A stretch of 55,430 bases of DNA from Oscillospiraceae bacterium (GTDB lineage Bacteria; Bacillota; Clostridia; Oscillospirales; Ruminococcaceae). Under the pieces are notes generated by a model. It saw only the letters and a list, made by a program, of their open reading frames with translations, had not been told where the DNA came from and ran no database searches. The stretch is from contig RKCM01000119.1 in the NCBI GenBank assembly GCA_014858325.1, positions 1 through 55,430 of the forward strand, read 5' to 3'. Shown piece by piece: positions 17,344 through 30,072 of the stretch. The translations under genes and the position numbers were made by a program. Positions within the stretch are counted from its first letter, which is position 1, and each line of letters starts with the position of its first letter.

Positions 17344-17766
17344 ATGGGAATCGAAAGTTATTCCCTCGCCAAGGACGGCGAGAAGAAACTGAGTGCCAAC
17401 TTTAGGGTGCGAGAGTTTGCCTGCGGTGACGGCAGCGACGCCGTGCTGATCGACGAGGAGCTGGTCATCGTTTTGCAGTGCATCCGGGAGCACTTCGGCA
17501 AGCCCCTGCACATCACCAGCGGCTACCGCACCGCCAGCCACAACGCCGCCGTCGGCGGCAGCAAGAGCAGCCAGCACCTGCTGGGCCGGGCGGCAGACTT
17601 TTGGGTGGAGGGCGTGGACGTGGCCACCGTGGCCGCTTACGCTGAAGCCCTGCTGCCCACCCACGGCGGCGTAGGCCGCTACCCGAGAGACGCCAAGCAC
17701 CTGAACCGCAAAACGGGCTGGGTGCATGTGGACACCCGTGCCAACAAAAGTCGCTGGACGCTGTGA
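17344..17766 (+). CDS. Endolysin, peptidase M15A family
   Basis: SGYR...N..VGG...SQH..G.AADF...WVHVD Zn-peptidase motifs; GGAGG RBS. Confidence 0.9.
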   Translation: MGIESYSLAKDGEKKLSANFRVREFACGDGSDAVLIDEELVIVLQCIREHFGKPLHITSGYRTASHNAAVGGSKSSQHLLGRAADFWVEGVDVATVAAYAEALLPTHGGVGRYPRDAKHLNRKTGWVHVDTRANKSRWTL

Positions 17767-17779
17767 GGGGGTGAGACCA

Positions 17780-18082
17780 ATGCAGCAGATTCTCTCGTAC
17801 ATCTCCGCGCACTGGACGGAGTGGTCCATCGGGCTGCTGGGCCTTGGCTGGGGCTACCTTGTCAAAAAGGTGACCGAGTACAAGACCATCAAAGATGGCC
17901 TGCTGGCCATCATGCACGACCGCCTGTACCAGTCCTGCACCTTCTACATCAAGCAGGGCAGCATTGACACTGGCGGCCTGAAAAACCTCGAATACCTTTA
18001 CAAAAGCTATCACGCACTGGGTGGCAACGGCACGGGCACGGAGCTCTATAACCGCGCCAAAGCCCTGCCCATCCAGGACTAA
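17780..18082 (+). CDS. Phage lysis-module membrane protein (holin-like, one N-terminal TM)
   Basis: N-terminal hydrophobic helix, DRLYQ..Y..LGGNG motif; lies between endolysin and holin. Confidence 0.65.
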   Translation: MQQILSYISAHWTEWSIGLLGLGWGYLVKKVTEYKTIKDGLLAIMHDRLYQSCTFYIKQGSIDTGGLKNLEYLYKSYHALGGNGTGTELYNRAKALPIQD

Positions 18083-18097
18083 AGAAAGGACAAGACC

Positions 18098-18361
18098 ATG
18101 AACGCACACATCCATACCCCTAAGAACATCTCCGCCGCCACCGTGGCCCGCACGGCGGTGCTGGGCCTTGCGCTGACCAACCAGCTGCTGAGTGCAGCAG
18201 GCAAGCCCGTGCTGCCCATTGAGTCCACCCAGGTGGAGCAGCTGGTGAGCGCAGGCTTCACCATCGGTGCCGCGCTGGCCAGCTGGTGGTACAACAACAG
18301 CTTCACTCAGGCTGCCATCAAGGCCGATGAAGAGTTCGAGCGGCAGAAGAAGCGGGTATGA
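18098..18361 (+). CDS. Phage holin, SPP1 family
   Basis: T.ART.VL.LAL.NQ.L...GK..LPI and WWYNNSFT..A..AD motifs. Confidence 0.9.
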   Translation: MNAHIHTPKNISAATVARTAVLGLALTNQLLSAAGKPVLPIESTQVEQLVSAGFTIGAALASWWYNNSFTQAAIKADEEFERQKKRV

Positions 18362-18403
18362 TAAGGCTCCCACGCTGTACAACAGAACAGAATAACGGAC
18401 AAG

Positions 18404-18446
18404 CGCCCCCTCGCTGCGGATGATCTCCGGCGAGGGGGCGTTTTTT
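18404..18446 (+). terminator. Intrinsic terminator of the phage late operon
   Basis: CGCCCCCTCGC/GCGAGGGGGCG stem followed by TTTTTT. Confidence 0.85.
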
Positions 18447-18470
18447 GCGCCACCTCTTGCGCCACCTCTT
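18445..18470. repeat. Tandem 12-bp direct repeat TTGCGCCACCTC x2, candidate integrase arm-type sites
   Basis: Exact tandem duplication ~120 bp from the tRNA 3' end. Confidence 0.6.
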
Positions 18471-18542
18471 CAAGGAAAGAAAAGAAAAAACGGAGTAATT
18501 AAGGCACTTTTGCGAGGAAAAGCGTGCTTAGCCGGACAAACA

Positions 18543-18587
18543 AAACTCCCCGAAAACTGGCTTGGAAAGCCAACTTTCGGGGAGTTT
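18543..18587 (-). terminator. Hairpin terminator 3' of tRNA-Thr
   Basis: AAACTCCCCGAAA...TTTCGGGGAGTTT inverted repeat, T-rich on the minus strand. Confidence 0.75.
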
Positions 18588-18591
18588 GATG

Positions 18592-18667
18592 TGGAGCTAC
18601 TGATCCGATTCGAACGGACGACCTGCTCATTACGAGTGAGCTGCTCTACCGGCTGAGCCACAGTAGC
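18592..18667 (-). tRNA. tRNA-Thr(CGT), probable prophage attachment site
   Basis: GCTACTG/CAGTAGC acceptor stem, anticodon arm GCTCA-CT CGT AA-TGAGC, GTTCGAATC T-loop, encoded CCA; 76 nt. Confidence 0.97.
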
Positions 18668-24622: not shown

Positions 24623-25483
24623 ATGGCAAACAAAGGACGTTCCAAACACACTGCTGTGCGGAAAAAGCGGCGTAAGCGGTCGCTGGGCACCGTTGTGTCC
24701 CTGCTGGTCTGCCTGTTTTGCTTCAGCGCAGCATTTTTCCTCTGGAAAGCAGCGCTGGCTGGCCCCCATTGGGGCAGCAGCGGGGGAGACGAGGACGATT
24801 TTCGCCCCGTGGTGGGGGACCCGCCTTACCGCGTTGCGGTGGACGCCGGACATGGCGGCAGCGACCCGGGGGCAAGGGGAGTCGTGGAGGAAAAAGAGAT
24901 GACCGCTGCGACCTCTGCCGCATTGCTGGGCTGGCTGGAGGCTGATCCAAACTTCATTCCGTTGACCTCCCGCGACAGCTACGATACCACCGCCAAACCC
25001 AGCGAGCGTGCCCAGACCGTCAACGCGCAGTCGCCGGATCTGCTGCTTTCCATCCATGGCAACTCTGCACCCGATGGCTCTACGGCCTTTGGCTTTGAAT
25101 GCTATCCCAGTGTGCCGGGCCGCACCTGGCACAAAGAAAGCTACTACTTTGCGAAACTCTTGGCAAATGGAATGCTCGAAGCCGGGGCGCATCTGCGCGG
25201 ACATGGGGGAGTGCGGTACATTTATTATCAGGGAGAGGCAAAGCAGCTGGTGGAGTCCACCCATGCCGAAGTGCGGGCTGAACGAAGCTTCACACTGCTG
25301 GAAGATGTAAATTGTCCGGCTGTGCTGGCAGAACAGTGCTTTGTGACCAGTGCGGAGGATGTGGCGCAGTTTGGCAGCGAAGAGGGCTGTAGGAAAACGG
25401 CCCGCGTGTACTACGAAGCCATCTGCTATTATTTTGGAACCGAACCACTGGCAGAAGCGCTCATAAACCAGAACGCGAACTGA
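24623..25483 (+). CDS. N-acetylmuramoyl-L-alanine amidase (Amidase_3), N-terminal TM anchor
   Basis: DAGHGGSDPGA, E, SIHGN, PAVLAE motifs. Confidence 0.9.
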   Translation: MANKGRSKHTAVRKKRRKRSLGTVVSLLVCLFCFSAAFFLWKAALAGPHWGSSGGDEDDFRPVVGDPPYRVAVDAGHGGSDPGARGVVEEKEMTAATSAALLGWLEADPNFIPLTSRDSYDTTAKPSERAQTVNAQSPDLLLSIHGNSAPDGSTAFGFECYPSVPGRTWHKESYYFAKLLANGMLEAGAHLRGHGGVRYIYYQGEAKQLVESTHAEVRAERSFTLLEDVNCPAVLAEQCFVTSAEDVAQFGSEEGCRKTARVYYEAICYYFGTEPLAEALINQNAN

Positions 25484-25562: not shown

Positions 25563-25677
25563 TGCACACGGGGGAGAGTACAAATCCGAAGGATCAAAGA
25601 TGACCTACAGCAGAGACAAGATCGCAGCCGTGGAGAAAAGCAGGAAGAAGGGAGTGCCCTGTTTTGGATTTGATAAA

Positions 25678-25705
25678 GTTTCGTATAATGCACGTTATAC
25701 GAATA
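25678..25705. other. Candidate chromosome dimer-resolution (dif-like) site
   Basis: GTTTCGTATAA-TGCACG-TTATACGAATA: 11-6-11 layout with a 9-bp perfect inverted repeat; ~400 bp from the xer gene, at the gene-orientation switch. Confidence 0.75.
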
Positions 25706-26101
25706 TTAGGGGAGCGAAAAAGCCTTCTTTTCCAGATTTTATGCCTTTTGGCATCTACGGCATCCATTTGGGCCTGCCGGGCTTGTGGAATGCGCTTTTT
25801 ACGGTATGCCTGCATTTCGTGTGTTTTTTGGTTAGAGTCGCCCTGTGATGCGCAAAACTTTTTCCAGCTCCAGCGTCCAGCTTTTTGCACTGCGGTTTGG
25901 GTGCGGGCATACTCACTACCAGCGTTCTGTGATGCTTTGCATTTGCGATGGCGTCTGTCTCGTAGTACCACAGGTTCGTCTGCGCATTGGGATTTGTCCA
26001 TGGTGTGGTGTCTCCGCAGATGGTATCATGGATACTCTGCGTGTTTTTCCTGCCAGCAGGTGCGCCACTCAGTCATGAGCGCGGCTTCGTCGGCCTGCAA
26101 T

Positions 26102-27322
26102 TTATCCTGTTGTTTCTGCATCATCATGGCTGTTTTCGTCTGTCGTTTCGCTGTCCGTCAGCGCGGAAATATCCGCCCGGAAGCCTTCCCGCGCGGCACC
26201 TTCAAAGGCTTCCATGGGGCCTGCGGGGGTATCCGAATCAGCGTCCTCCTGCAGAAGTGCTTCTTCCCTGTTCCCTGCTGCCCGTTTTGTTGTATCCAAG
26301 TGAGCCTTTTCGGGTGTGACCGTACCCAGCGGGTTCTGCTCAATGGCTGCACGCACCTGAAAATCCTGTAGGTGCGTATAAATTTGAGTGGTGCCGACGC
26401 TGCTGTGGCCCAGCAGCTGCTTGAGGGTCAGGATATCCACATTGCCGGTCTGATACATCAGTGTTGCGGCAGTGTGACGGAGCTTGTGGACCGAGAAGTC
26501 CTTGAGTCCCGCCGCCCGCATGGCCCCTTTGATGAGCTGTTCTACGCGGCGGTTGGAGATGCGGTCTTTCCGCCGCCGGGTGACGAAGACGGCCCGCTCC
26601 TTGGGGTTCATTCCCTCCATCGTGTTCCGCTTGGCAAGATAAAGCCGCAAAGCTTCTATGCAGGCATCGTTGAGATAGACCATTCGCTCCTTGTGGCCCT
26701 TGCCGAAAAGCCGAATCTGCCGCTGTTCGAGGTCGATATCGCCCAGATCCATGCCCACAAGCTCCGAAAGTCGCATCCCACAGTTCAAAAACAGCACGAC
26801 CATGCAATAATCCCGCTCCGGGAAATCGCTCTGGTACTGGGTGCTTTCCAGCAAGTCCATGGATTGCTCTGCCGTCAGATATTTGGGTAAGACCTTGTCC
26901 TGTTTGGGCGGGCGAATGGCCGCCGTGGGGTCCTGCTGGATGCGGTTGACCTGATTGGTCAAATAATCGTAAAACCCGTGCAGGCTGGCCAGCCGCCGGG
27001 CAGTGGAGGATTTTTTATTGCCGCACTCGCTGCTCAAAAAATACAGGTATTCGTAGATATCTTCTTTGGACACCGCAGCCCAAAAGGCTGTATCGAGCCC
27101 CTTGGGGTCGATGTCCTTCATTTCGGCGTCGTCCGGGACAAGGCTGCGCCGCCGCTTCATGAATTTGCTGAAATTGCGCAGATCGCAGTAGTAGCTGAAA
27201 GCCGTGTTGGGGCTTTTTCCCGCAATGACTTCCAGATAGCGTACGTATTCCACAATGTCCGGCGAAGCATCATCAAAGGGTTTGTGTTTGCCGGGATTCT
27301 TTTCGTCCAGATAAATCGACAT
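26102..27322 (-). CDS. xerC: Xer-family tyrosine recombinase
   Basis: Catalytic R (GMRLSEL), K (GKGHKER), HKLRH, LLGH, Y (TQIYTH); N-terminal SAM-like domain; acidic C-terminal tail. Confidence 0.85.
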   Translation of the reverse strand: MSIYLDEKNPGKHKPFDDASPDIVEYVRYLEVIAGKSPNTAFSYYCDLRNFSKFMKRRRSLVPDDAEMKDIDPKGLDTAFWAAVSKEDIYEYLYFLSSECGNKKSSTARRLASLHGFYDYLTNQVNRIQQDPTAAIRPPKQDKVLPKYLTAEQSMDLLESTQYQSDFPERDYCMVVLFLNCGMRLSELVGMDLGDIDLEQRQIRLFGKGHKERMVYLNDACIEALRLYLAKRNTMEGMNPKERAVFVTRRRKDRISNRRVEQLIKGAMRAAGLKDFSVHKLRHTAATLMYQTGNVDILTLKQLLGHSSVGTTQIYTHLQDFQVRAAIEQNPLGTVTPEKAHLDTTKRAAGNREEALLQEDADSDTPAGPMEAFEGAAREGFRADISALTDSETTDENSHDDAETTG

Positions 27323-27336
27323 GAGTTCCCTCTTTT

Positions 27337-28749
27337 TTATAAGCGGTCTTTCTTCAATGCTTGGATGGCCTCGGAAAGATAAGCGGCTCCTACCAGCTGC
27401 ATTCCGGGGTAATCGGCGGCGTTCAGGTGGGCAAGGCTGTGCTTGGGGAGGACAGCGCGCTCAAAACCGATGCGCTCGGCTTCCCGCAAGCGCTGTTCGA
27501 GGTTCGGCACGCTGCGCACCTCGCCGCCAAGGCCCACTTCGCCGATGGCAATGAGTTTATCGCTGACGGGCTGATCGAGCAGAGACGACACCATGCTGAG
27601 GCAGACGGCCAGATCGCAGGCGGTATCTCGCAGGGCAATGCCGCCCACGATGTTGATATACACATCCAGATTGCCAAAGAAATACCCCGCCCGCTTTTCC
27701 AGTACGGCGATGAGCAGATTCATGCGGTTGTAATCGTAACCGCTGCAGGCACGGCGCGGAGCTGGGAAATTTGTTTTGGTGGCCAGCGCCTGGATCTCGC
27801 TCAGGATGGGGCGGCTGCCCTCCATGGTGCAGGCGACGCAGTTGCCCGAAACGCCCAGCGGGCGGCCTTCCAGCAGCATTTGGGAGGGGTTTTCGATCTC
27901 CTCAAGCCCCTGCCCTGTCATATCGAACATTCCCAGCTCATTGGTGGAGCCGTAGCGGTTCTTTGCTGCCCGCAGGATGCGGTAGGGCAGCATCTTGTCC
28001 CCCTCAAAGTAGAGCACGGTATCTACGATGTGCTCCATCACCTTGGGGCCGGCAATGGCACCGTCTTTGTTGACATGGCCCACGATGAACATCGGGATCT
28101 CCTGCTTCTTGGCCACGGCCAGCAAGCGGGCGGCGCTCTCCTTTACCTGGCTGACCGTGCCGGAAGAGGATGAGATATCCATGCACCGCATGGTCTGGAT
28201 GGAATCGATGACCACGAGATCGGGCTTCTCCTTCTCGATCAGGCCGCAGATCTCGTCTACGTCATTTTCCGCAGCGAGGTAGATGTTCTCCTGCGGCACC
28301 TTCAGGCGTGCGGCACGCAGCTTGACCTGCCGCACCGACTCTTCGCCTGTGATATACAGAACCGTATGCTGGTTGGAGATGGCTCCGCACAGCTGCAGCA
28401 GCATGGTGGATTTGCCCACGCCCGGCTCACCGCTCAGCAATACCACGCCGCCCAGCACGATGCCGCCTCCCAGCACCCGGTCCAGCTCGGAAATGCCCGT
28501 CAGGATGCGGCTTTTTTCTTCCGTTGTACTGATATCGGCCAGCCGCTTTGCCGTCAGGGAGGTAACGCCCTCCTGTCGGGCGGCAGCGGCCGTTTTGCCG
28601 CCGGAAAGGCCCGCCTTGGGCGCCTCGGCCACGACGTCTTCATTCATGGTGTTCCAGCTGCCGCAGCTGGGGCAGCGGCCCATCCAGCGGGGGCTTGTCT
28701 CCCCGCAGTTGGAGCAGACATATACCGTTTTGAGTTTTGGTTCTTTCAT
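27337..28749 (-). CDS. radA: DNA repair protein RadA/Sms
   Basis: C4 zinc finger, GEPGVGKS, KNRYG, Lon-like C-terminal domain. Confidence 0.97.
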   Translation of the reverse strand: MKEPKLKTVYVCSNCGETSPRWMGRCPSCGSWNTMNEDVVAEAPKAGLSGGKTAAAARQEGVTSLTAKRLADISTTEEKSRILTGISELDRVLGGGIVLGGVVLLSGEPGVGKSTMLLQLCGAISNQHTVLYITGEESVRQVKLRAARLKVPQENIYLAAENDVDEICGLIEKEKPDLVVIDSIQTMRCMDISSSSGTVSQVKESAARLLAVAKKQEIPMFIVGHVNKDGAIAGPKVMEHIVDTVLYFEGDKMLPYRILRAAKNRYGSTNELGMFDMTGQGLEEIENPSQMLLEGRPLGVSGNCVACTMEGSRPILSEIQALATKTNFPAPRRACSGYDYNRMNLLIAVLEKRAGYFFGNLDVYINIVGGIALRDTACDLAVCLSMVSSLLDQPVSDKLIAIGEVGLGGEVRSVPNLEQRLREAERIGFERAVLPKHSLAHLNAADYPGMQLVGAAYLSEAIQALKKDRL

Positions 28750-28846: not shown

Positions 28847-29599
28847 TCATCCCAAATGATTGGCCAGATACACAAGGCAGACCGCCCCGCCGCAGAGGGG
28901 CAGAAACGCCCCGCAGGCCCATGCAAACTGCCCCAACAGCCGCCGTGCACCGGGGGTGGTTCCCCTGCTTTTCCCTGCTTGGCCAAAGGAGACCGCGTGC
29001 AGGCGGCTGCTCACCCGCAGCGCTGCCGCGCCAAACAGGCAAAGCACCCCGGCTGCCAGTGCCGTTGGCACGCTGGAGAGCAGCCCCATCAGCAAAAAAC
29101 GCTTCCAGCCAAGGCCCGAAAGCAGCTGTGCCGAGAGCAGGCTCATTCCAGCACCATAAAGCATCGCAAAAAGATAAATGGGCAGCGCTCCCAGTGCGGA
29201 GAGACCCAGCAGCAGCAAAACCGTCAATGCCCCCAGCGCCGTGAGGAGCTCGGACGTAAACAGCCTGGCCACCTGAGAGGCGCTCTGGACGGCAAAGAGG
29301 CTCTGCCAGCATTGGAGGTAGTAGGCCAGCATCTCGGCCTCTCCGGCATCGCAGCGGGCCTGCAGAATGCCTGCCGCGAAGGTCCCCAGCAAATAGGCGG
29401 CCGCCAGCAGGGTGCACCTCCGGCTGAGGTGCGGAATCCGCTTTTGCTTTGGGGAAGCGGATGCCGGAGCAGCGTTTACGGCTGGGGGCCGTGGCGGCGC
29501 TGCAGGCGGGATGATCTGCTCTGGGATCGCGGGCAGGTCCGCCGGTGCGGAGGCAGGTTTTGCGATGGATCGTGTTTCGGTCTTTGGATACACCCACAT
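28847..29599 (-). CDS. Membrane protein, possibly SpoIIM-like
   Basis: Multi-TM C-terminal region; start inferred at MWVYPK behind a GGAGG RBS. Confidence 0.5.
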   Translation of the reverse strand: MWVYPKTETRSIAKPASAPADLPAIPEQIIPPAAPPRPPAVNAAPASASPKQKRIPHLSRRCTLLAAAYLLGTFAAGILQARCDAGEAEMLAYYLQCWQSLFAVQSASQVARLFTSELLTALGALTVLLLLGLSALGALPIYLFAMLYGAGMSLLSAQLLSGLGWKRFLLMGLLSSVPTALAAGVLCLFGAAALRVSSRLHAVSFGQAGKSRGTTPGARRLLGQFAWACGAFLPLCGGAVCLVYLANHLG

Positions 29600-29673
29600 G
29601 GAGCCTTGTCCCTCCTGCTGCTTCAAAAACAGGTGCACCACCTGTGGTGCACCCGCGTTGTGTGTTCTGCGCC

Positions 29674-30072
29674 TCACGAGCGCCGCCGCTTTTCGCTCCG
29701 CAGCATTCCCAGTACACCGCCGATGCAGCCAAACAGGAATACCACGGCAAACCGTATCAGCTCCCACTCCCCCGGCGGCCCGCCGGAGAAGAGAGCAAAG
29801 CAGAGCAGCAGGAAAACGAACAGTGTCCCCTGCACCACGCCGCAGAGCAGCCCCCGGCTCTTTTGCCAAAAAGCCATGAGCCAGCCGCTGAACAGGCTTC
29901 CCGCACTGACGGCGCAGGTGGCCATGGGCCAGGCCGCACTCTGCGAGAGCCCCTGCTGCACCATTCCGTAGGCGAGGCCCGCCATGCAGGCCCCGGCCAG
30001 AATGCCACCGCCGCAAAAGGCGAGCAGCGCTCTGCCCGCCGGGAATTTTGCCGAAGAAGTTCCACCAGACAT
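29674..30072 (-). CDS. TIGR04086-like four-TM membrane protein
   Basis: K.RGLL.G and GG..G motifs; typical neighbour of yajC. Confidence 0.7.
   Translation of the reverse strand: MSGGTSSAKFPAGRALLAFCGGGILAGACMAGLAYGMVQQGLSQSAAWPMATCAVSAGSLFSGWLMAFWQKSRGLLCGVVQGTLFVFLLLCFALFSGGPPGEWELIRFAVVFLFGCIGGVLGMLRSEKRRRS

Follow-up and report, generated by a model that had tools for sequence, protein, structure and literature searches.

A nearly symmetric dif-type site beside one Xer-type recombinase: a probable single-recombinase system for chromosome dimer resolution in Clostridia

Which enzyme, acting at which site, resolves chromosome dimers in the Clostridia? For this class, which dominates the gut, dimer resolution is a gap in knowledge, and the question is raised by a 55,430-nt stretch of DNA from an Oscillospiraceae bacterium (GenBank assembly GCA_014858325.1, contig RKCM01000119.1, positions 1 to 55,430; the whole stretch is referred to here as the window). 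It contains a 28-bp, nearly symmetric sequence close to a gene for an Xer-type tyrosine recombinase whose closest relatives (at most 87% identical) are mostly titled Faecalibacterium. Together these very probably constitute a single-recombinase dif system for chromosome dimer resolution, spread across the Clostridia. A first-pass annotation had proposed such a one-enzyme module for this gut lineage; the module is well supported, and its range is much wider, taking in most of the Clostridia sampled. One enzyme is favored because the site is a single copy at the terminus, XerD is missing from the genus at its curated cut-off, FtsK with a gamma domain is encoded, and phages recombine at sites of this class. 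Naming an enzyme, a site and a candidate guide motif for FtsK opens the question to direct testing.

The site and its recombinase

The site (25678..25705) has the 11-6-11 layout of dif-type crossover sites: a left arm (25678-25688), a spacer (25689-25694), and a right arm (25695-25705), together reading GTTTCGTATAA-TGCACG-TTATACGAATA in non-coding DNA. The arms were at first described as perfectly inverted. Their inner 9 bp are indeed an exact inverted repeat; the outer 2 bp are unpaired, so that 9 of 11 positions pair. The 6-bp spacer TGCACG (25689..25694, plus strand) is asymmetric and is the predicted overlap region; by analogy with tyrosine recombinase chemistry in general, it would set the orientation of the site and its compatibility with partners. 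Inverted repeats of 9 bp with a 6-bp gap are not rare (dozens were found in a scan, chiefly terminator-like), and the site is considered to stand beyond chance because it is single-copy, is conserved beside the orthologous gene, and follows an exact genus-wide pattern whose reversed control is null. The 28-bp site is real and conserved. No second copy was found elsewhere in the source assembly (1.8 Mb, 78% complete) at up to four mismatches over the 22 arm positions. On one side the site is followed by AGGGGAG-C-GAAAAA (25708..25721, plus strand), with GGGGAG at 25709-25714 directed away from it; on the far side from this G-rich flank is a short T tract (25662..25665, plus strand), also conserved in the genus, with columns at least 90% conserved among 65 close loci. 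To the left of the site the GC skew of the window is positive; farther right it turns negative.

The recombinase gene (26102..27322, minus strand) encodes 406 amino acids, a core of ~335 and an acidic tail of ~70. Its stop codon lies 397 bp from the end of the site, bearing out the ~400 bp first given, and it was correctly called intact: R184, K208/K211, H279, R282, H306, and Y315 show no variation across all 120 relatives aligned. The only domains are PF02899 and PF00589, a two-domain architecture with no arm-binding domain. The protein misses the cut-offs of the XerC, XerD, XerA, and XerS models (213 bits to TIGR02224, cut-off 335; 210 to TIGR02225, cut-off 330; 196.5 to NF040815, cut-off 220; 148 to NF003462, cut-off 267). 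Its helix RISxRxV is of XerC type and, on the pattern of Xer structures, is probably the recognition helix; the core-binding domain carries an insertion of 12-14 residues, and the C terminus has NPL where XerC and XerD have HPRA. The predicted structure (predicted local distance difference test, pLDDT, 91.4) has XerA and XerH as its top structural matches. The acidic tail (26102-26314, minus strand) is found in the main clade of the genus and is absent from most family members.

In two trees, the clade containing this recombinase is well separated, with Shimodaira-Hasegawa-like approximate likelihood ratio (SH-aLRT) support of 100 and 99.6. It is sister (SH-aLRT 99) to XerS and XerS-like proteins, in a fast search of 81 subsampled sequences that left out XerH, XerA, and XerL; the XerS side consisted of one streptococcal-type XerS, five other Bacillota XerS-family proteins, and 20 clostridial XerS-like proteins.

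Distribution in the genus, the family and the class

Conservation beside the orthologous gene, which the first-pass annotation had put forward as a check, is borne out. Among 69 loci with a recombinase at least 69% identical, 65 keep the site; of the four that do not, three end less than 1.6 kb from the gene, and in the fourth the left arm is broken. Of 57 genus genomes, 50 match an exact degenerate pattern of the site (48 of them once) and none matches the reversed control; at least three of the seven genomes without it have a variant site upstream of a more divergent orthologue. In all nine closed genus genomes the site is 168-193 degrees from dnaA, five of the nine genome sizes being rounded in this calculation, which places it at the replication terminus. 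One arm is near-invariant (63 of the 65 close loci) and the other variable; the spacer is TGCACG in 49 of 65.

A canonical XerCD/dif pair elsewhere, which the first-pass annotation had named as evidence to the contrary, did not appear. XerD above its curated cut-off was found in none of the 57 genus genomes, the closed ones included; nine weaker hits (158-186 bits) are spread over six of them. An exact canonical dif with an XerD arm is absent from closed genomes G013 and G020. FtsK with a gamma domain is encoded in all five genomes checked, the source genome among them.

Within the main clade of the genus, the site is found downstream of the gene, at 0.2-4.3 kb. A divergent subgroup (loci L114, L115, and L140 in genomes G017, G002, and G055) has an orthologue only 44-47% identical and a site upstream, which is the family arrangement; in the main clade, therefore, the protein has evolved fast, the arm has changed, and the site has moved downstream. 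In five loci (L038, L043, L048, L061, and L092, at ~7200) what looks by eye like an acetyltransferase open reading frame (ORF) of 170-190 codons lies between gene and site, its first codons holding an exact arm and part of a spacer, as if caught by crossover at a dif-like sequence.

Across the family, the gene was found in 115 of 120 genomes, 113 of them with one hit. XerD-like hits of at least 288 bits occur in five of the 120, and there are seven more at 214-242 bits. Sixty of the 115 loci were read, the ten top scorers first and after them long contigs for the most part. In 47, an 11-6-11 palindrome pairing at 10 or all 11 positions lies no more than 1.5 kb from the gene; the 11-bp arms are perfect in 38, mostly ATTTCGCTAAA-N6-TTTAGCGAAAT. 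By the same test, palindromes are beside the gene in 5/15 loci from the order, and in 19/29 best-scoring and 10/20 long-contig loci from the class. None was found at 15 XerD loci (two of 17 having been dropped for want of an anchor) or at 30 XerC loci drawn from other classes of the phylum. With spacer lengths of 4, 5, and 7 the 60 family loci yield 0, 2, and 0 palindromes; a length of 8 amounts to another reading of the same register.

Of 200 Clostridia genomes sampled, ~140 by hand tally contain the recombinase family at E ≤1e-55. The clostridial XerS-like group is found in 33 of the 200, and both together in only one, so that the two come close to excluding each other. For a wider set of 83 sites, oriented by spacer, the first spacer base is T in 97%. 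The site may be upstream of the gene, downstream, inverted (24/83), or up to 7.9 kb away. In nine of ten further closed or near-closed Clostridia the gene is 164-190 degrees from dnaA. Of 35 sampled genomes with XerD, 25 have a symmetric site, as have 6 of 10 that lack XerD.

Other arrangements of Xer genes and palindromes were seen in the class. A second single-Xer lineage, XerS-like, is found in other clostridial families (L492, L496-L514), often with its own palindrome upstream. In family f26 (L195, L202, L297) the gene is flanked by two palindromes, the upstream one of the usual type; the downstream one, right after the stop codon, consists of two XerD-type arms (e.g., AATTTACATAA-TATATA-TTATGTAAATT in L202). 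These genomes encode XerD, and the downstream palindrome is possibly an XerD-only site. In some Oscillospirales (L116 in G032, L117, L119) a second Xer-like gene is 0.1-4 kb from the recombinase gene; that of G032 is a true XerD by score, and the site there is 7.9 kb away with a 19-bp palindromic extension.

Crossover, direction and alternative explanations

Phages give evidence of strand exchange at sites of this class. A Pusillibacter faecalis record has, between radA and the recombinase gene, a 5-kb gokushovirus-like prophage whose genes include those for a microvirus capsid, a pilot protein, and replication; a dif-like site stands at either end. Such a site is also found in 28 of 80 contigs of related phages, and in seven of the 80 the rep-VP1-VP2 genes are bracketed by two sites of identical spacer. 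The bracketing site with a phage flank reads ATTGAACAAAA-TGATAT-TTTTGTTCAAT (one has a single left-arm change), and that with a G-rich, host-type flank reads AATAAGCAAAT-TGATAT-TTTTGTTCAAT (one has a single change). Four circular phage contigs have a single site, of the AATAAGCAAAT-TGATAT-TTTTGTTCAAT form, with phage flanks on both sides. The spacer is thus identical in both prophage junctions and the free phage site. Junctions and circles are reciprocal, the outcome expected if a perfectly palindromic host site undergoes a single crossover within its spacer, and the phage products show crossover at sites of this class. A search of the 80 contigs with the recombinase found no copy of its gene apart from one in flanking host DNA. 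The attachment site of gut gokushoviruses in clostridial hosts is thereby supplied, which should aid host assignment.

The exact family palindrome was also found on 20 viral contigs (L341-L360), only two of which have this recombinase gene within 4 kb; the remainder mostly have other spacers and no G-rich flank. Two of those lacking the gene were read and have tailed-phage-like genes. Such viral palindromes may be sites for resolution that extrachromosomal elements have borrowed. Copies of the recombinase also occur on large plasmids or chromids: those of Ruminococcus albus, Clostridium acetobutylicum (pSOL1), and C. butyricum (L335, L338, L339) each have their own, with a different palindrome just upstream.

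Symmetric arms leave the direction of the reaction to be explained. Published models (PMC5241119, PMC2965235) order strand exchange by arm asymmetry, and the symmetric arms here therefore present a mechanistic puzzle. The G-rich flank may bear on it. A GGG[AG] motif is found 3-10 bp outside one arm in 65/65 close loci and outside the other arm in 0/65, with a flank consensus of AGGGGAG-N-GAAAAA. Orienting the 83 wider sites by spacer alone puts a G-rich flank on that side in 63 and on the opposite side in 11. It is retained at 39 of 55 inverted or distant sites, and is therefore more than a ribosome-binding site.

The core of this flank is also polarized around the site. In the 400 kb surrounding the site in G020, with gene strand controlled, GGGGAG ranks first of 2939 hexamers for leading-strand bias; its sense:antisense counts are 85:18 in co-directional genes and 5:28 in head-on genes, and GGGGAGA (37:2 within 100 kb) flips at the site. 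Gene orientation, local GC skew, and GGGGAG polarity all flip there. In the window the GGGGAG counts are 14:4 to the left of the site and 3:11 to the right. By these counts GGGGAG has the local skew and frequency asked of FtsK-orienting polar sequences (KOPS; PMC3384302), and is a candidate KOPS-like motif; a Chi-like role instead is possible. With non-permissive KOPS engineered 10 bp to one side of a site, FtsK was blocked on that side (PMC2965235), which suggests how a symmetric site could gain direction.

The most likely mechanism is as follows; in it, binding, catalysis, the dimer substrate, and FtsK control are all extrapolated from XerS, XerH, and XerCD together with the genomic pattern. 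After replication, FtsK would bring the two site copies of a dimer together at the septum, and two recombinase monomers would bind each, giving a homotetrameric synapse. The four monomers of the one enzyme would exchange strands at the edges of the 6-bp spacer via a Holliday junction, converting the dimer to two monomers, with FtsK, steered by polar GGGGAG motifs, licensing the reaction at the septum. Since both arms are alike, asymmetry would come from the spacer and from the outward GGGGAG beside one arm: GGGGAG might shield its side from FtsK, so that the monomer on the opposite arm is activated first. This scheme of shielding and first activation is the most speculative part of the proposal, and is rather unlikely to be right as it stands.

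A broader synthesis is equally tentative. In it, most Clostridia would have swapped XerCD-dif for a homotetrameric XerS-sister recombinase on a fully symmetric site with reversed KOPS, the FtsK guide sequence rather than the arms choosing the first half; XerD would be kept for a separate job on symmetric sites of its own; the 20-plus arms would represent mutually orthogonal recombinase-site pairs; and phages and plasmids would use them for integration where the spacer matches and for multimer resolution where it does not. Taken as a whole, this is doubtful.

A number of observations count against a single-recombinase dimer resolution system, or against parts of it. In the window the cumulative G-C curve plateaus from ~26 kb and reaches its maximum at 33.3 kb, with no sharp peak at the site. 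The exact 9-bp inner symmetry is found in just 18 of 65 close relatives, and in the stretch read, 13 of the 60 loci from the family and 14 of 45 genomes from the class have no palindrome with at least 10 of 11 pairs. The 22 distinct perfect arms counted among the 83 wider sites, and the covariation of their arms, are partly circular, the sites having been picked partly for symmetry. Extra exact copies of the palindrome with other spacers (G050, G052, G153, G159, G182) break the strict single-copy rule. In the closed family genome G192 (C1:2089488) the gene is 110 degrees from dnaA with no matching site, the result of a rearrangement, a misassembly, or a divergent site. XerD is encoded by 117 of 201 class genomes, so that outside the family it may have a role at the site. 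The related hosts of the phages have a different arm (ATTGAACAAAA) from that of the window site, and no phage integrated at a Faecalibacterium-type site was found in 40 viral loci. The KOPS-like test was done on one genome (G020, 400 kb) with a crude gene caller, and a G-rich flank on both sides in L116 and L169 does not fit one-sided shielding. Long branches may inflate the grouping with XerS.

Of the alternatives, the best survivor, improbable as it is, reads the palindrome, which contains TATAAT, as a promoter element or autoregulatory operator for the recombinase gene, with the G-rich flank as the ribosome-binding site. Sixty-five of the 83 wider sites are indeed no more than 300 bp upstream of the start codon, the flank is at Shine-Dalgarno distance in L206, L211, L214, L216, and L218, and L192 has an extra half-site right before the start. 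In the window and the main clade of the genus, however, the site comes after the gene, and around the window site no consensus promoter was detected; elsewhere many sites are inverted relative to the gene or distant from it and mostly keep the flank, and the phage junctions show crossover. Sites upstream of the gene may serve autoregulation as well.

Lone arm-like half-sites are present in several loci (L067, L069, L072, L075, L076, and L094 at ~4530; L034, L078, and L082 at ~2820-2890). They precede a G-rich stretch resembling a ribosome-binding site and are ~1.5 kb (ahead of radA) and 3.1 kb upstream of the recombinase. It is possible that these are autoregulatory operators; a half-site upstream of radA is not evident in the window.

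Slightly less probable still is that the protein serves mainly as a roadblock organizing the terminus, as XerD at XDS unloads SMC in Bacillus subtilis (reviewed in PMC11894783). Perfect or near-perfect secondary palindromes with other spacers, 28-137 kb from the main site (L111:7930 in G050; L112:8890 in G052; G159; G182), could be read in this way. These have no GGGGAG flank where read, and the L112 copy is between convergent housekeeping genes. No secondary site with one mismatch or less was found in the 400 kb around the G020 site, however (there is one two-mismatch hit), and none in G042, G058, or G080; the catalytic residues are invariant in all 120 aligned relatives, and no other Xer is available in the genus. 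A roadblock role could be an added function.

A third alternative, with very little in its favor overall, is a recently acquired Cre/loxP-like or mobile-element resolvase module, active without FtsK. The first-pass annotation, which had suggested a Cre/lox-like pair, counted 24 of 34 positions identical to loxP over 25675-25708. Recomputed against record X03453 this is correct, with arm identities of 10/13 and 9/13, and it is the best match in the assembly (the runner-up has 21). Linkage of gene and site is as in P1, and the same gene family with its own palindrome is on the plasmids and chromids mentioned above. Homology to Cre/lox is not supported, however: phmmer with the recombinase finds no match to Cre (best blastp E 0.13), and Cre ranks 37th among the structural matches, aligning in structure at 14-15% identity. 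Nearly all family genomes have the gene, as a single copy, and its neighbors at the terminus are housekeeping genes. Faecalibacterium alone has the loxP-like arm, the arms of relatives reading ATTTCGCTAAA or ATTATACAAAA. Its likeness to loxP is likely incidental, because the arm TTTCGTATAA is also the XerC half of ordinary dif-type sites (L457, L460) and a near-identical arm occurs in a predicted Heliobacterium dif (supplementary rows of PMC3025954). The recombinase may possibly act independently of FtsK all the same.

That the protein is the XerC partner of an overlooked XerD in an ordinary two-enzyme system can practically be dismissed, in spite of its XerC-type recognition helix, the frequency of XerD in the class, and the 78% completeness of the source assembly, since no genus genome, closed or otherwise, has XerD above cut-off, both arms are of one type, and the symmetry persists alongside XerD in 25 of 35 genomes.

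Relation to known systems, and the neighborhood

The single-recombinase dif system preferred here works like XerS/difSL of streptococci and lactococci (PMC1914069, PMC2965235) and is its sister, yet is not a member by score, tree, or site form. Both have one recombinase with gene and site linked at the terminus; the site is usually just upstream of xerS, as in most relatives here, and downstream in the main clade of Faecalibacterium. The two sister clades have a common core-binding-domain insertion, and AAAA-N6-TTTT inner arms, as at the xerS-side site in L484, are found in many relatives. In contrast, the recombinase is 25% identical to streptococcal XerS, reaches its 148 bits against the XerS model in the catalytic domain only, and is in a separate clade outside that of XerS (SH-aLRT 99.6). 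The 31-bp difSL has imperfect inverted repeats and the xerS-side site in L484 pairs at 8 of 11 positions, while arms here are usually perfect (38/60 family loci); a conserved one-sided GGGGAG flank, and an XerD often retained in the genome, also set these genomes apart.

XerL/dif of the Legionellales (PMC9765430) likewise has a single recombinase and perfect dyad symmetry, and is used by an integrating mobile element. The XerL gene is more than 400 kb from its site, however, rather than adjacent, and its arms are reported to be unlike known Xer-binding motifs, where those here are XerC-like. The 11-6-11 layout, the location at the terminus, and the XerC-type helix and arm are common to XerC/XerD-dif of E. 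coli and Bacillota (PMC3025954, PMC5357621), from which the present system differs in having one enzyme and two like arms, with no XerD arm; the recombinase is 30% identical to E. coli XerC and 32% to XerD.

XerH/difH (PMC5241119) and archaeal XerA/dif (PMC2958812), whose enzymes are the top structural matches, are also described as single-recombinase dimer resolution systems. For XerH the asymmetry comes from the arms; the recombinase scores 51 bits to XerH (5jjv) and 105 to XerD. XerA is described as FtsK-free, and the genomes here encode FtsK with a gamma domain. Cre/loxP of P1 (X03453) is alike in its one enzyme, symmetric arms, asymmetric spacer, and adjoining gene, and unlike in its 13-8-13 layout, with 13-bp arms compared with 11 bp here and the outer bases mostly mismatched; the recombinase here is a chromosomal core gene with no Cre similarity detectable by phmmer.

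Enterobacterial gokushovirus prophages integrated at dif via XerCD (PMC7062461) are also microviruses without an integrase, flanked by two dif-like sites; those here are in Clostridia and at a host site of symmetric, single-enzyme type. A word search of the accessible text of PMC7062461 gives no mention of Clostridi, Firmicutes, Ruminococc, or Oscilli. Two Firmicutes prophages are mentioned in the accessible portion of PMC9239249, from which the whole word "dif" is absent.

No prior description of this clostridial system was found in the literature searched, within its accessible extent. In the genome-wide dif survey of PMC3025954, the 19 Clostridia supplementary rows include no Ruminococcaceae-type genome; prediction failed for two Clostridium genomes, and the other four Clostridium predictions are 137-176 degrees from the skew shift. 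The site suggests a conserved neutral landing site for the genetics of hard-to-engineer commensals, and marks the terminus in fragmented assemblies; use as a recombination tool would require activity independent of FtsK.

The genes around the pair in the window are housekeeping in part. radA (27337..28749, minus strand; TIGR00416, 562 bits) lies on the same strand and ends 14 bp before the recombinase gene starts; it is likewise upstream of that gene in the Pusillibacter record. Judged from spacing alone, it is probably co-transcribed with the recombinase; it is a neighbor, outside the recombinase-site module. On the other side, an N-acetylmuramoyl-L-alanine amidase gene (24623..25483, plus strand; PF01520) converges on the site. 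Only one other PF00589 gene is present in the assembly; its 393-aa product looks by eye like a mobile-element integrase. Just upstream of radA is a 389-aa ORF (28847-30016, minus strand) with no match in Pfam or NCBIfam, a proline-rich middle, and a hydrophobic C-terminal half; its true start is probably internal. About 7 kb to the left of the site (17726-18667), two small ORFs that look by eye like holins lie by a tRNA-Thr(CGT) gene (18592-18667), and this region is possibly the end of a prophage or island.

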